DNA from: Syntrophomonadales bacterium
GTDB lineage: Bacteria > Bacillota > Syntrophomonadia > Syntrophomonadales > DTU052
Length of the DNA: 64,000 bases
Reading direction: 5' to 3'
NCBI GenBank assembly: GCA_050951725.1
Contig: JBMNJO010000001.1
Span: 924,967 to 988,966, forward strand
The translations under genes were made by a program, and so were the position numbers. Shown in pieces: positions 1,354 through 63,622 of this stretch. Under the pieces are notes generated by a model, which was not told the DNA's origin, made no database searches, and saw only the letters and a list, made by a program, of their open reading frames with translations. Numbering within the stretch: position 1 is the stretch's first letter; every line of letters begins with the position of its first letter.

Positions 1354-1922
1354 CTTTTACCCCCTTCCAATCTTTGCACCACCACCAACAGCGGGGGGTG
1401 ATGGATCTGATTGATGAATTTCACCTTTAAGACCTCAAAATCCTGCTGATCAAGTTTCCCGGTAAGTGTCACTACTTCCTGGGTTTCCTCCGCCCCTCCC
1501 TCGTGACCGGGATAACAGACGATAGTCATAACCCCTCCCGGTCGGAGGAGATGGACCGCCTTTTCTATGGCCTCCCGGGAACACTCAGCAGTGGTAGCCG
1601 TTTCCCGGGGAGCACCCGGGAGAAACCCCAGGTTGAACATGATGGCTCCTACCGTTGAACTCACGTAAGAGGCCAGGTTGCGAAAGTCTTCCTCATATAG
1701 CTGAACCCGGGCTGACAACCCATGCTTCTCCAGCCGGGCGCGGGTATTGGCGATGGCCCGGGGTGATATATCAAAAGCCAGGACCTGCCCGCCGCTCACG
1801 AGTCCGGCGAGGAACAACGTGTCATGACCATTGCCGCAGGTGGCATCGATCACCGTGTCACTTGGTTTAACCACCCTCTGAATACAGAGGTGGGACAGAT
1901 TAACGGCATTGCGAAAACTCAT
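1350..1922 (-). CDS. class I SAM-dependent methyltransferase (YtqB-like)
   Basis: 190 aa with SAM-binding motif VIDATCGNGHDTLFLA. Start and stop overlap the neighbouring genes by 4 nt. Confidence 0.7.
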   Translation of the reverse strand: MSFRNAVNLSHLCIQRVVKPSDTVIDATCGNGHDTLFLAGLVSGGQVLAFDISPRAIANTRARLEKHGLSARVQLYEEDFRNLASYVSSTVGAIMFNLGFLPGAPRETATTAECSREAIEKAVHLLRPGGVMTIVCYPGHEGGAEETQEVVTLTGKLDQQDFEVLKVKFINQIHHPPLLVVVQRLEGGKR

Positions 1923-2713
1923 AGCTGCAGTTTTTTGCTCAAGACCTCAAGAATACTGTGGTCCTTGAGCTTCACCAGACTGAGCTGGTAGGGAGACCGC
2001 TTTACCTCCACCTCATCTCCGGGCGATACGGTGAGGGTATCCTGCCCATCCACGGTAAGCACTACCTTTTCAGTCTCCGGAATAATGGTTAAGGTGTGAC
2101 TGGCATTCATCACCAGGGGCTTTAAAGCAGGCACGTAAGGACAGACTGGCGTAAGAACCATTACCTGGGCATCGGGCATCATCACCGGTCCGCCAGCCGA
2201 CAGTGAGTAGGCAGTGGAACCCGTTGGGGTGGCACAGATAATGCCATCAGCAACATACCCGGCTACTGGTTTCCCGTCCATCAATACCTGCAGGCGTATC
2301 ATACGGGCAATTCCCTGCCGTAATACAGTGGCTTCATTGAGGGCCTCGCTCTGAAAAATGATGTCATCTCCTCGGCGGGCGGTTATCCGCAACATCATGC
2401 GGTCCTCGAGACGGTAATCCCGGTTGATTATGCGCTGTAAATACTGGTTTAACTCATGGACCTCCAACTCCGCCAGAAAGCCAACTCGGCCCAGGTTTAT
2501 AGTTAAAAGAGGGATCCCCAGGTGACCACACCTGCGGGCGGTCCCCAGGATCGTACCATCCCCCCCGAATACCACCAGAAGGTCAGGGGCGTTGTCCCCT
2601 TCATGCCAGTCGGGGATTACCGTAAGGCCCTGGGATTCCATGGTAAGAGCTACCTCATGGGCCACCCTGCGGGTTGCATCCCGACGGGAGTTTGAGACCA
2701 AACCAACAATCAT
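1919..2713 (-). CDS. nadK: NAD+ kinase
   Basis: 264 aa with the GGDGT motif (VVFGGDGTILG) and typical length. Confidence 0.9.
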   Translation of the reverse strand: MIVGLVSNSRRDATRRVAHEVALTMESQGLTVIPDWHEGDNAPDLLVVFGGDGTILGTARRCGHLGIPLLTINLGRVGFLAELEVHELNQYLQRIINRDYRLEDRMMLRITARRGDDIIFQSEALNEATVLRQGIARMIRLQVLMDGKPVAGYVADGIICATPTGSTAYSLSAGGPVMMPDAQVMVLTPVCPYVPALKPLVMNASHTLTIIPETEKVVLTVDGQDTLTVSPGDEVEVKRSPYQLSLVKLKDHSILEVLSKKLQL

Positions 2714-2783
2714 TTCAAATCTCCTAGTTTATACTATTTGTTCGAAAGCTGTATCTGATTCCACTGCCAGTCATATTTCGCTA

Positions 2784-2976
2784 GTTTGCATGGATAAGTA
2801 TTGGTCGCCAGATTTCGCATAGGCTTCCCTCTGGTTGTCTCACAACCTTAGAGGTATGGTGAATTTGCGTTCATCCTCTCACCCCGGCTATGCGGCTCAA
2901 CACATTTCGTCGTTCACCTTCACAGGGTGTTGCTCCCGTGATCCGTAAAGGCTGCTCAATACTTATGCATTCAAAC
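2784..2976 (+). repeat. structured intergenic repeat, copy E1 (strand tentative)
   Basis: 193 nt in the tlyA-nadK spacer. It is bounded by 20-nt inverted termini, GTTTGCATGGATAAGTATTG (2784-2803) and CAATACTTATGCATTCAAAC (2957-2976). It shares internal blocks with the copies at 23585, 45733, 59571 and 63289. Confidence 0.6.
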
Positions 2977-2981
2977 TACCG

Positions 2982-3806
2982 TCATCCCTGATTTGGTACC
3001 GGCTTATCGAGTTGGTGGTGTGCATCCGCCACCACCCGGGAAAGCATGGCATAATCAACGGTTTCTGTCAGTCCCTTCTTCAGATGGAAGAAGAACTCAA
3101 TGTTCCCATTGGGACCTTTGATGGGCGAATAGCAGGCGTTCACCAGGGCCAGTCCGCATTCCGATGCCTGCCGTGCCACTCGGTGCAAAACCTCTTCGTG
3201 AACTTCTGAACTCTTGACCACACCTTTTTTGCCCACTTGCTCACGTCCGGCCTCAAACTGGGGTTTGACCAGGGCCACCACCTCACCGTCATCGGTCAGC
3301 AGTCCGGCTGCCACCGGGAGAACCAGGCCCAAGGAGATAAAGGCTACATCAATGGTAATGAGGTCCATCTTCTCGGAGAAATCCTCCGGGGTCACGTACC
3401 TTATATTGGTGCGTTCGATCGTAGTAACCCGGGGGTCCTGGCGCAGGCTCCAGTCGAGCTGACCATACCCCACATCGACCGCATAGACCTTACGGGCGTC
3501 GTGCTGCAGGGCACAATCGGTGAACCCTCCGGTGGAAGCACCCACATCCATTACCACCTTATTCGCAAAATCCAGGTCCATTGCCTGGATGGCTCCCAGG
3601 AGTTTCAGCCCCCCGCGGCTGACAAAGTTCGGTCCATCATTGCCCAACACCCGGAGTTCGGAACCCTCGGGTATCTTCTGCCCCGGCTTTTCCACCCTCT
3701 GCCCATCCGCAAAGACCAGACCGGCCAGAATCAGGGCCCGCGCCTTTTCGCGGCTCGGGGCGAAACCCTCCACGTGCAATCTGATGTCAGCCCGTTCACC
3801 CGACAC
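2982..3806 (-). CDS. tlyA: TlyA-family rRNA 2'-O-methyltransferase (hemolysin A-like)
   Basis: 274 aa with an S4-like N-terminus, FVSRGGLKL, and an FtsJ-like SAM motif DVGASTGGFTDC. Confidence 0.85.
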   Translation of the reverse strand: MSGERADIRLHVEGFAPSREKARALILAGLVFADGQRVEKPGQKIPEGSELRVLGNDGPNFVSRGGLKLLGAIQAMDLDFANKVVMDVGASTGGFTDCALQHDARKVYAVDVGYGQLDWSLRQDPRVTTIERTNIRYVTPEDFSEKMDLITIDVAFISLGLVLPVAAGLLTDDGEVVALVKPQFEAGREQVGKKGVVKSSEVHEEVLHRVARQASECGLALVNACYSPIKGPNGNIEFFFHLKKGLTETVDYAMLSRVVADAHHQLDKPVPNQG

Positions 3807-5702: not shown

Positions 5703-6284
5703 TCACCTTCTTCCCTTAAAAAGCTCCATCCCGGTGAGGTTCTCCCACCATCTCAGGACTTCAGCCACTTTAAGGATGATCGAGTTGGCATTATTGATGG
5801 CAATACTCTTGCCTATGGTTTTTCCTCCTACCGTCACCGCCGCAATCAGACTGGTCATCGCTGCTCCCAGGAGTACAGTATCCACAACGGTAAACATGGA
5901 ATACCGGGCATAAAACGTATAAACTATAGAAGCGCCGATGGCTCCACTGAGGGTTCCGGCAATATCCCCCACCACATCGGCAGTTAAATTGGCTACCAGG
6001 TCCGCATTGCGGACAATCCTGACCGCCTGGCTGGCTCCGCGAATCTTCTTGGCAGCCATAGCGTTAAAAGGAACAACATCAGCCGCAGTAGCCGCAGTAC
6101 CGATGGCGTCGGAAACGATACCCGCCACCACCACCAGTCCCAGGGACAAAAAAGAAACAAAAAGATCCTGGACCGCATTGATGATCGACTCCAGGCCGAG
6201 GCTGATGATCAAGCCGGACATAAAGGTAAAAAACGTGATCCACAGGGCTGGTATAAATATGTTGCCTTCGGTGACCCTGGCCAA
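5703..6284 (-). CDS. oapA: OLE-associated membrane protein OapA
   Basis: 193 aa, multi-pass membrane protein with a TTG start, located immediately downstream of the OLE-like RNA and upstream of dxs. It contains a D-x-x-x-D motif (LTADVVGDIAG). Confidence 0.75.
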   Translation of the reverse strand: MARVTEGNIFIPALWITFFTFMSGLIISLGLESIINAVQDLFVSFLSLGLVVVAGIVSDAIGTAATAADVVPFNAMAAKKIRGASQAVRIVRNADLVANLTADVVGDIAGTLSGAIGASIVYTFYARYSMFTVVDTVLLGAAMTSLIAAVTVGGKTIGKSIAINNANSIILKVAEVLRWWENLTGMELFKGRR

Positions 6285-6299
6285 AAATACACTCCCTGA

Positions 6300-6890
6300 A
6301 TAAGTAGAATAAAGCGGAGGTTACCCCCTGAGTAAACGCTGTGACTTAGGTCCAGCAGGTTTTCCCGTTGAACATCCTGCTTGTCGCCAAGCAGGCGGTT
6401 TCCCTTTACGCTCAACCCGTGTTGTCGCCGTACACGAGGCTGGATTACCACTTAGTGCACACTTTAATCCCCAGAGGGTCGTGCCTGGCACACAGTCTAG
6501 GGGATTTCCCCGACAACCTCTACCAATTCTTAGCCTCTTTTGCAGCAGGGGTTTCAGAAGAGGGAAAACGGAACCGTGGCCATCGGTCTCCGTACCTCTA
6601 TAACTCATCCGCCCATACCACTCAAGGCAGGCTACACTGCACCCAGCTTCCTACCAGATGCAGGTTTTCCCGAAGGATTGCTCCTTCGAGCCTCCACGGG
6701 TGGGGGGTCAGTTCCCGCATGCCGTTGCAGGCTGCCCCGGCACCCTTAACTCCCAGCACCAACCCCCAACTGGGCGTTGAAAGCTGACACCAGAATCTTC
6801 ATCGATGTGCCCTATAACGGATTTTTAGGCCCGTCTTCAGAATTGGTGAGATTGACTAGAATACTGCAACCTCCACCCATAATTCTAATT
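6300..6890 (-). ncRNA. ole: OLE (ornate, large, extremophilic) RNA; ends approximate to about 40 nt
   Basis: About 590 nt with only short, mutually overlapping ORFs on both strands. The segment is GC-rich with dense local complementarity. It lies between a promoter and oapA, followed by dxs-tlyA-nadK-argR-recN, which is the known ole synteny. Confidence 0.75.
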
Positions 6891-23584: not shown

Positions 23585-23810
23585 TAAGCATGATTCCCCG
23601 CGAAAACCCAGGAGGCGGTTGGCGTAGCATGGTAGCAACGGTGAAGGCTCACGGCGAAAGGGGGCGAGCCCCATGGACGGGGCGAGAGGGCCACTGAACA
23701 CGGACATGAATTGGCCCGGTGCCCCATTCGTCGTGAGACAAGCAGTTGGTGTTGCCCATGTGAAGTCTGGCGACGAATATTTATGCATCCAAACTCCGAA
23801 TCGCAACTTT
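23585..23810 (-). repeat. structured intergenic repeat, copy E2 (strand tentative)
   Basis: Shares the GTTTGGATGCATAAATATTCGTCGCCAGACTTC terminus and internal blocks with the other copies. It is bracketed by a perfect 13-nt direct repeat, TTGCAGGGAAACT, at 23572-23584 and 23811-23823. Confidence 0.6.
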
Positions 23811-23910
23811 TTGCAGGGAAACTATTAACTCGTTTGCAAACGCAGGAGCCAAGCTCATTCGATTGCTGGACGAGCCGGATGAACGGATGGTGTCCAAAAA
23901 GGAAGGACGG

Positions 23911-45690: not shown

Positions 45691-45732
45691 TTTGTGCCAC
45701 TGATTACCCTGCCAAAAGTAATAATCTCTTAC

Positions 45733-45790
45733 GTTTGGATGCATAGATATTCGTCGCCTGACTTCGCATGATGGAACACCATCCAAAAGG
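45733..45790 (+). repeat. structured intergenic repeat, truncated copy E3 (one terminal module only)
   Basis: GTTTGGATGCATAGATATTCGTCGCCTGACTTCGCATGATGGAACACC matches most of the terminal ~50 nt of copy E2 (by-eye alignment). The similarity then stops. Confidence 0.5.
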
Positions 45791-59388: not shown

Positions 59389-59570
59389 CCACCATTCCCC
59401 CTTTCTGTAGTAATGATACCTTAATTTCCCGGAAAGCACACCCCCTTCCTGCTGTACCAGACAGGCGGGAACTACGGTCAAAGTGGGACAGGGAAACAGG
59501 TTCGCTGACCTGCTTTTCCGAAAGCAGCAGGACTGTAACAGGTACTTTCCGATTAAATCTTGAGTCTAGA

Positions 59571-59773
59571 GCCTGCGCAAAATTCCGGTGAGCGGACGTT
59601 GTATCCGAACGCCGCCGCACCCTGCTGAGCGACGGTGGAAATCAACCAAGCGACAGGACGCGAGATAAGTTTTTGTGACATGGACGAATAGAAGGAGTGA
59701 TGCTCGCCACCTGAACCTGAGCATTTGGCGTTACCAGTGCAGGACCCAGGAACGAACGGAATTTGCGCACGCC
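59571..59773 (-). repeat. structured intergenic repeat, copy R4 (strand inferred from wobble pairs)
   Basis: 203 nt. The terminal arms GCCTGCGCAAAATTCCG and CGGAATTTGCGCACGCC pair with each other. It is closely similar to copy R5 throughout. Confidence 0.65.
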
Positions 59774-59854
59774 GCTGCACATGAAGCCAGCTGTAGTCCT
59801 CCGCCCAGCATTCAATATTGAACAGTGAACTCGTCCCCTGTCCCACCTGCTGGT

Positions 59855-63237: not shown

Positions 63238-63250
63238 GAAATGGGACAGA

Positions 63251-63276
63251 GGGACAGATCTACTGTCCCATTTTTT
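63251..63276 (+). terminator. intrinsic terminator after corA
   Basis: GGGACAGATCTACTGTCCCATTTTTT. Confidence 0.8.
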
Positions 63277-63288
63277 GCTGCAGCTAAG

Positions 63289-63499
63289 GCCTGCGGTAAA
63301 TTCCGGTGAGCGGATGTTGGGTCCGAACTGTGCAACACCCTGCGAAGCTGAAGATGGAAAGCAGCCGAGCGACACGAGGTCGCGAGATAAGCCTTTTAGA
63401 CATGGACGTCGATTAGGCGGGGTGCTGCTTTCCACCTGAATCTAAGCAGTTGGTGCTGCCAGCGCAGGACCCAGGAAGCGAACGGAATTTACCGCAGGC
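63289..63499 (-). repeat. structured intergenic repeat, copy R5 (best preserved; strand inferred from wobble pairs)
   Basis: 211 nt with a perfect 17-bp terminal stem, GCCTGCGGTAAATTCCG / CGGAATTTACCGCAGGC. An internal 14-bp helix joins 63352-63365 and 63424-63437. Confidence 0.7.
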
Positions 63500-63622
63500 C
63501 GACGCGCGCGTAACCAGTAAACTCCCCGCACCAAGAAAACGGAAACAAGGGATCCAAGCCCCTTGCTTCCATATCCTGCATTGCATCACGGGGACAGTCC
63601 CCGTGATGCAGTTTGCTTCCGT

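Follow-up and report, generated by a model that had tools for sequence, protein, structure and literature searches.

The tlyA-nadK spacer in the 64,000-nt stretch of Syntrophomonadales DNA analysed here (the window) is 268 nt long, and the question raised by this locus is what occupies it and whether the occupant works as an RNA. On the minus strand, the order is OLE RNA, dxs, tlyA, the spacer, nadK, a methyltransferase gene, argR and recN, with gene identities taken from precomputed Pfam families on identical contigs. The gene upstream of the spacer, tlyA (S4 + FtsJ; 2982..3806, minus strand), is intact in length (274 aa), and the gene downstream, nadK (NAD kinase; 1919..2713, minus strand), conserves with its relatives the RBS and a proximal spacer of about 46 nt. 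A full-length OLE RNA (6301-6888, minus strand; RF01071, 484.6 bits) is followed by an oapA-like gene of 193 aa (5703-6284) and then by dxs, tlyA, the spacer element and nadK, an order that places the element inside a conserved OLE-linked operon. The first-pass annotation, made from the letters alone, had described the spacer as filled by a 193-nt copy, E1, of an unclassified structured repeat.

The element in the spacer

That E1 is one copy of a structured repeat is supported; however, it reaches farther outward than the 193 nt assigned to it. An nhmmer search with an intact copy of the family (L015:702-970) aligned window positions 2757-2979 to family positions 1-242 (E = 7.9e-27, 73% identity), and the full extent of this degenerate copy is 2754..2979, in the plus orientation of the family. 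Reading from the nadK side, E1 retains an outer terminal inverted repeat (2754..2765, plus strand; GATTCCACTGCC, family consensus GATTCCACTGCA), followed by a subterminal spacer (2766..2783, plus strand; AGTCATATTTCGCTA) carrying a weak -10-like box, CATATT, whose versions elsewhere in the family are TATAAT, TATATT and AATAAT. Next comes the closing stem P1, with a first arm at 2779..2803, the left terminus of the earlier annotation, and a second arm at 2957..2981; the arms are 25 nt long and 88% complementary, which confirms the inverted termini claimed before, the 20-mers given then matching at 18/20 positions. The outer terminal inverted repeat expected beyond the second arm, on the tlyA side, is missing, and the tlyA stop codon (2982-2984) lies 6 nt past the inner arm. 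Between the arms, the family covariance model R1, built from external loci only and without any window sequence, detected a degenerate TwoAYGGAY-like core at 2819..2939 on the minus strand (cmsearch, 30.5 bits, E = 6.8e-5). The TwoAYGGAY-sense strand of E1 is the minus strand of the window, which is the sense strand of the operon.

Sequence blocks of E1 had also been said to recur at four other intergenic loci. Their recurrence is above chance, since GTCGCCAGATTTCGCAT, with 2 mismatches, is found again at 23758 (minus strand) and 45753 (plus strand), giving 3 matches against 0.13 expected, and GCAACACCCTGYGAAGSTGAA is present at 2913 (minus strand) and 63332 (plus strand), 2 against 0 expected; however, the four loci are not equivalent. 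A scan of 2600-3100 yielded zero sigma-70 promoters and zero intrinsic terminators, and E1 is neither a canonical terminator nor a sigma-70 promoter, in agreement with the initial view that it looks like neither a terminator nor a simple promoter spacer. A sporulation-sigma promoter perceived by eye in the GCATAAATATT arm was dropped, given its poor -10 fit and the conservation of that spacer as part of the repeat.

The same spacer was also compared with that of close relatives. In three relatives whose TlyA is 83, 82 and 76% identical, it measures 135, 112 and 102 nt and the element is absent (empty sites in L026, L028 and L030), and the alignment to the relatives restarts exactly at the outer terminus of E1 (...CCAGATGTGG... 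set against ...TC|AGATACAG...). Orthologous 20-kb stretches from those relatives also gave no match to the family covariance model. A further relative, with 67% identical TlyA, has an unrelated spacer of 309 nt. Because the close relatives lack the element, E1 is alien to the operon spacer, and because homology resumes at its terminus, we regard it as a lineage-specific insertion that was later trimmed. This presence/absence polymorphism is a property expected of a miniature inverted-repeat transposable element (MITE).

Mobile-DNA anatomy of the family

The family unit is non-coding and about 269 nt long; it starts with GATTCCACTGCAAAAAGGTATAATTCGCAG, some 30 nt outside the start first given, and ends in ...TTTTTGCAGTGGAATC. 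A degenerate pattern of the left arm, scanned over one genome per species, matched only in Syntrophomonadaceae. In the scan of the genome collection, at least 13 copies were found on 6 contigs of the MAG JBMNGL01, where copies are 93-98% identical to each other, while in the fragmented MAG CAZXIR01 5 copies lie within about 110 nt of contig ends, family copies breaking the assembly of that MAG; one further site was found elsewhere. In each of the ten complete copies the ends are perfect inverted repeats of 12 nt, GATTCCACTGCA...TGCAGTGGAATC, and all ten are also bordered by AT-rich direct target-site duplications of 5-8 bp, typically 6, such as AAGAGT, ATAGAT, ATGATT, AAGAAG and ATATTCT; in L036, from another metagenome, ATTGTT stands on both flanks. 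Intact copies can pair from the first to the last nucleotide, as a long closing stem plus a core.

The family thus has the terminal inverted repeats, the target-site duplication and the small, non-coding, multicopy character of MITEs, and in behaviour and anatomy it is MITE-like; this, and the likeness of its core to a known Rfam motif (see below), make the label "unclassified" too strong. E1 itself keeps the nadK-side terminus alone. Several bacterial MITEs fold as hairpins, among them the Correia elements of Neisseria, the enterobacterial ERIC/IRU, the pneumococcal RUP and bcr1 of Bacillus. These are non-coding elements of 100-350 nt with terminal inverted repeats and target-site duplication, present as many near-identical intergenic copies, which often sit within operons or a short way ahead of genes; when co-transcribed, the entire element can fold into one hairpin, and decayed relics are common. 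The family resembles Correia, ERIC, RUP and bcr1 in size, lack of coding sequence, terminal inverted repeats, duplications and copy number, a likeness of anatomy, with no relation in sequence expected, but differs in its AT-rich duplication of 6-7 bp and, from usual MITEs, in an interior that forms a covariation-supported multi-helix fold common to non-mobile relatives. E1 is best filed as a decayed bacterial MITE.

Three MITE copies carry, at the same position, a nested 85-nt element with inverted ends of its own, CCTGGATTCC...GGAATCCAGG, and constitute a 353-nt composite subfamily; the nested element lies approximately at 4205-4290 in L009, 2295-2380 in L014 and 2030-2115 in L019, and L012 contains a remnant of it.

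Perfect 12-nt terminal inverted repeats together with duplications of 6-7 bp are the signature of a cut-and-paste (DDE-type) transposase, for which reason we propose that the MITE is moved in trans by such an enzyme. A search of the window and the 55 loci (about 0.5 Mb) for an autonomous element or a transposase bounded by matching ends came out negative, and therefore the transposition mechanism is deduced from the anatomy only; an autonomous partner should be recognisable by the family end pair GATTCCNCTGC...GCAGNGGAATC. The loci and the window were also free of extra matches to the outer terminus and of distant inverted pairs. As a candidate partner we considered L010, which diverges after 55 nt, and it proved to be a truncated copy beside a GlcF-like gene and not a transposon. 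The ends of IS200/IS605 elements or omega-RNAs, and those of IS110 with its bridge RNA, were dropped in view of the terminal inverted repeats and duplications and of the lack of an adjacent tnpB or IS110 gene. The outer terminus GATTCCACTGCAAAAAGTT (e.g., L001 1658-1676) resembles the IS6-family inverted repeat GGTTCTGTTGCAAAGTT, but IS6 elements usually make 8-bp duplications as opposed to the 6-7 bp of the family. Viral contigs gave 0 matches for both diagnostic patterns, and a literature search retrieved nothing on MITEs in Syntrophomonas.

The folded core, its relatives and its strand

The centre of an intact copy, read on the strand opposite to the MITE plus strand, is ...GGGGGCGAG-CCCC AUGGAC GGGG-CGAGA-GGGCUA..AC AUGGAU GU..UAGCCC-GG..., which gives a pair of hairpins, each with an AYGGAY loop. 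We aligned 18 distinct external cores (135 nt), from both MITE-type copies and non-MITE relatives, and RNAalifold returned a five-helix structure of 38 pairs, compensatory changes being present at 18 of these. Paired cells amounted to 94.6%, against 36-50% in slid controls, and 0/500 shuffles reached the observed values. From the covariation, the shuffles and the slid controls it follows that the core fold is real and common to MITE-type copies and non-MITE relatives.

Two adjacent hairpins with AYGGAY terminal loops are the hallmark of the TwoAYGGAY motif (RF01731), in whose original description the closing stem, P1, is often very large and can reach 24 bp (Weinberg et al., 2010; PMC2864571 supplement). 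At the Rfam gathering threshold, the whole window contained only OLE and one tRNA. A permissive search of E1 against Rfam gave nothing relevant, with no TwoAYGGAY match at E <= 10; for nine other copies, TwoAYGGAY was the top and the sole recurring match, always at 22.3-35.4 bits and so below its threshold of 43 bits. These matches are those at window 63317-63473 (25.4 bits, E = 0.094), in L015 (22.3 bits, model positions 45-113), in the five tandem units of L050 (22.7-31.5 bits), in L054 (35.4 bits) and in L035 (35.0 bits), and all except that of L015 (8/9) span the full model. The likeness extends to an 'AG' linker between the hairpins and a 'CGG' 3' of hairpin 2, to the enclosing helices with a closing stem that is often very long, and to occurrence in Clostridia. 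Both AYGGAY loops are present in intact relatives, namely L015 (AUGGAC, AUGGAU), the window copy E2 (AUGGAC, ACGGAC), L047 and L054. On the other hand, every copy scores under 43 bits, loop 1 is missing in some lineages (L001, L045) and reads ACAGGAGG or ACACGAGG in copies of the type of w63 (see below), and in the literature examined we found no description of MITE packaging, duplications or tandem arrays for TwoAYGGAY. Judged by sequence and fold, the family core appears to be a divergent relative of this orphan motif; because it stays below threshold, we leave it outside RF01731.

The function proposed for TwoAYGGAY RNAs is the sequestration of CsrA through the two GGA loops (Gardner and Eldai, 2015; PMC4333381). 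Intact family members share with CsrA-titrating sRNAs of the CsrB/RsmZ type an A(N)GGA in two hairpin loops. Their hairpin 2, ACAUGGAUGU, is comparable with the CsrA SELEX consensus, RUACARGGAUGU, and the five units of the L050 array would display about 10 GGA loops. By analogy, then, hairpin 2 and the multi-unit arrays would fit the idea of a CsrA sponge. With no GGA loop left, E1 could not titrate CsrA. Used as tblastn queries, CsrA and a retron reverse transcriptase gave no match in the window and the loci, which cover a small part of each genome, and a literature search provided nothing useful on CsrA in Syntrophomonas.

The other window loci that share blocks with E1 fall into different classes. 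E2 (23585..23824, minus strand) is a MITE-type copy (R1 106.7 bits; nhmmer E = 2.9e-41) with one P1 arm deleted and an intact core at 23629-23759 (plus strand). E3 (45702..45790, plus strand) is the left portion, about 90 nt, of a MITE-type copy, without core (nhmmer family positions 2-86, E = 4.3e-8). It holds one stem arm along with the outer terminus and the -10-like box. Its position is upstream of spoIIP (Pfam), with the ahcY terminator on its other side, and it could supply promoter or 5'-UTR sequence to spoIIP. The remaining two, w63 (63285..63505, plus strand; core 63326-63463, R1 101.7 bits) and w59 (59565..59790, plus strand; core 59608-59738, R1 17.0 bits, E = 0.059), are paralogous elements of about 215 nt that have only the core in common with MITE-type copies. 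Both of these non-MITE relatives are closed by GGCCTGCGGTAAATTCC/GGAATTTACCGCAGGCC, a 17-bp stem unlike the outer stems of the MITE, and have no target-site duplication; w63 looks intact. Its degenerate counterpart w59 is the direct-repeat partner of the 63261 locus (families D1, D4 and D7), for which a relative (L038) has an ortholog truncated at the 3' end. Inverted repeats containing GGGACAG flank or precede these two elements, at 59483-59493 / 59835-59846 and at 63240-63275 (GTGGGACAGGG...CCCTGTCCCAC and ATGGGACAG..CTGTCCCAT); these are possibly terminators or another small repeat.

A metagenome scan with the core pattern added MITE-type copies from other species, the truncated ortholog in L038 and two head-to-tail arrays. 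One array has five units with a period of about 310 nt (L050 4354-5732, minus strand) and sits between a cbiN-like gene and cbiQ of an operon for cobalt/nickel transport; the second (L041 5333-5715, plus strand), of two units repeating every 246 nt, sits between genes for a hydrolase and an H+-pyrophosphatase. Arrays and singletons of this kind lack terminal inverted repeats and duplications, and therefore arrays and MITE copies may arise differently.

Regarding the functional strand, the evidence conflicts. By crude longest-ORF gene calls, on which the orientation counts rest, the AYGGAY strand runs against its neighbours in about 23 of the 27 loci with co-directional flanks, an antisense group to which both tandem arrays, E2 and w59 belong, and orientation is mixed in 3 more (binomial estimate for the ~23:4 split, about 3e-4). 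The four sense-oriented loci are E1, L037, L049 and L034, and sense copies are mostly damaged: E1 and L034 score 30.5 and 31.5 bits, L049 has an insertion of about 50 nt, and the first loop of L037 is AUGAAC. The AYGGAY strand folds better by 7-24 kcal/mol in most MITE-type copies, and G-U pairs outnumber A-C mismatches on it by about 17 to 10. The opposite strand runs with the neighbouring genes and carries the conserved -10-like box (TATAAT, TATATT, AATAAT or CATATT), placed for a transcription start at the base of the closing stem, without a full sigma-70 promoter being called.

Decay of E1 and the competing explanations

Measured on R1, intact external copies score 100-160 bits, and in the window E2 and w63 reach 106.7 and 101.7 bits as against 30.5 for E1 and 17.0 for w59. 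E1 is degenerate: both AYGGAY loops are gone, as are a major helix and the outer terminus on one side. The loop of its hairpin 1 is AUAGCC instead of AYGGAY, hairpin 2 is mostly deleted, helices 1 and 2 contain many broken or non-canonical pairs, and the long-range helix, in which CGACGAAAGGGG pairs with CCCCUUUCGUCG, is broken; of the TwoAYGGAY architecture, the enclosing P1 stem is kept. The nested helices that the first-pass annotation had listed, GGTTGT-CTC-ACAACC and GGTGAA..TTCACC, turned out to be local pairings of E1 alone, which fill the space of the long-range helix and are not conserved elsewhere. With such a score, its loops lost and its conserved helices broken, E1 is unlikely to be the working structured RNA of about 190 nt that had been implied.

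We consider it highly probable that E1 arrived as a MITE and that, after trimming and mutation, what remains is a passive part of the operon mRNA able to form a hairpin. On this reading, the family is a mobile, non-coding repeat of Syntrophomonadaceae, and E1 is a degenerate, immobile copy that inserted into the tlyA-nadK spacer after the split from the relatives with about 83% identical TlyA. The outer terminus on the tlyA side has since disappeared, apparently together with some of the old spacer; the two AYGGAY loops and most of hairpin 2 are gone as well, and the main long-range helix no longer pairs. E1 would at present be transcribed passively within the dxs-tlyA-nadK-...-recN mRNA, forming a hairpin of about -63 to -73 kcal/mol with an effect, at most, on mRNA processing or stability; it would probably be neither a discrete RNA gene nor a terminator or promoter.

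A different possibility is that E1 serves the operon as a functional RNA, either a cis-regulatory or processing element, for example an RNase III site or a stabiliser by which tlyA and nadK expression is uncoupled, or an sRNA cut out of the mRNA. Its operon-sense strand, which coincides with the TwoAYGGAY-sense strand, folds very stably (-63.4 kcal/mol, z = -4.0, 0/200 shuffles as good), but the opposite strand folds about equally well (-61.7 kcal/mol, z = -3.7, 0/200 shuffles as good), which is what a relic palindrome should do. Six same-species metagenome contigs, out of 22 bearing an identical NadK, were read and have an identical spacer, and this invariance is compatible with neutrality in a clonal population as well as with retained function. 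Against a function stand the absence of the element from the spacer of the three closest available relatives, the rarity and mostly degenerate state of sense-oriented copies, and the fact that the family-conserved AYGGAY loops, helix 2 and hairpin 2 are precisely what E1 has lost. All this makes a functional E1 improbable in our opinion.

A second alternative concerns the family: it may be an RNA-templated (retron- or SINE-like) element copied in trans by a reverse transcriptase, with E1 as a dead retro-copy. Since the terminal inverted repeats double as the base of an RNA-like closing stem, the inverted ends may have a purely RNA-based origin; the head-to-tail arrays of 5 and 2 units among the relatives and the failure to find a transposase in the window or the 55 loci point in the same direction. 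In term counts, the 'Minerva' preprint of September 2026 (10.64898/2026.09.22.753630) has AYGGAY at 56 and reverse transcriptase at 14, with CsrA at 0 and transposase at 1, and as far as such counts speak for its content, they suggest that it treats TwoAYGGAY together with reverse transcriptase, both apparently in the abstract. However, the combination of perfect 12-nt terminal inverted repeats and a duplication uniformly of 6-7 bp is a classic mark of DDE transposition, the array and singleton relatives are devoid of both features, and the tblastn search with a retron reverse transcriptase, a weak test, gave no match in the window and the loci. On this balance, an RNA-templated origin also seems rather unlikely. 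The idea that the inverted repeat and the shared blocks arose by chance in an ordinary spacer has nothing in its favour except that some of these blocks are short, and it is refuted by the nhmmer match to an intact member (E = 8e-27), by the motif counts (3 against 0.13 and 2 against 0 expected) and by the covariance-model match (E = 6.8e-5), which leave it next to no probability.

The arrival and decay of a MITE, our preferred reading, can be joined with the orientation data in a wider scheme that we offer tentatively, as possible and on the whole doubtful. The TwoAYGGAY-like module would be an active RNA, titrating a protein through its two GGA loops or acting as partner of a reverse transcriptase, and would spread both as arrays and as MITE cargo. 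The ~23:4 antisense bias would then reflect selection against co-transcribing the active strand in host mRNAs, and the sense-oriented E1 would have survived in an essential operon only through the loss of its AYGGAY loops and core helices.

E1 itself is of little weight, although it explains the oversized operon spacer near the OLE RNA locus and shows, by way of warning, that a relic palindrome can be mistaken for a regulatory RNA. The family is weightier, as TwoAYGGAY has been an orphan since 2010, with the CsrA-sponge proposal dating from 2015. Four of its features appear to be new, since we found no description of them in the literature examined: a divergent branch with the fold packaged between transposon-like ends, head-to-tail arrays with as many as five units, a strong bias in orientation relative to neighbouring genes, and the mostly decayed state of copies in sense orientation. 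These would offer handles on the role of the motif and on its acting strand, and the Syntrophomonadaceae of anaerobic digesters provide abundant metatranscriptomes in which both strand and role can be tested.
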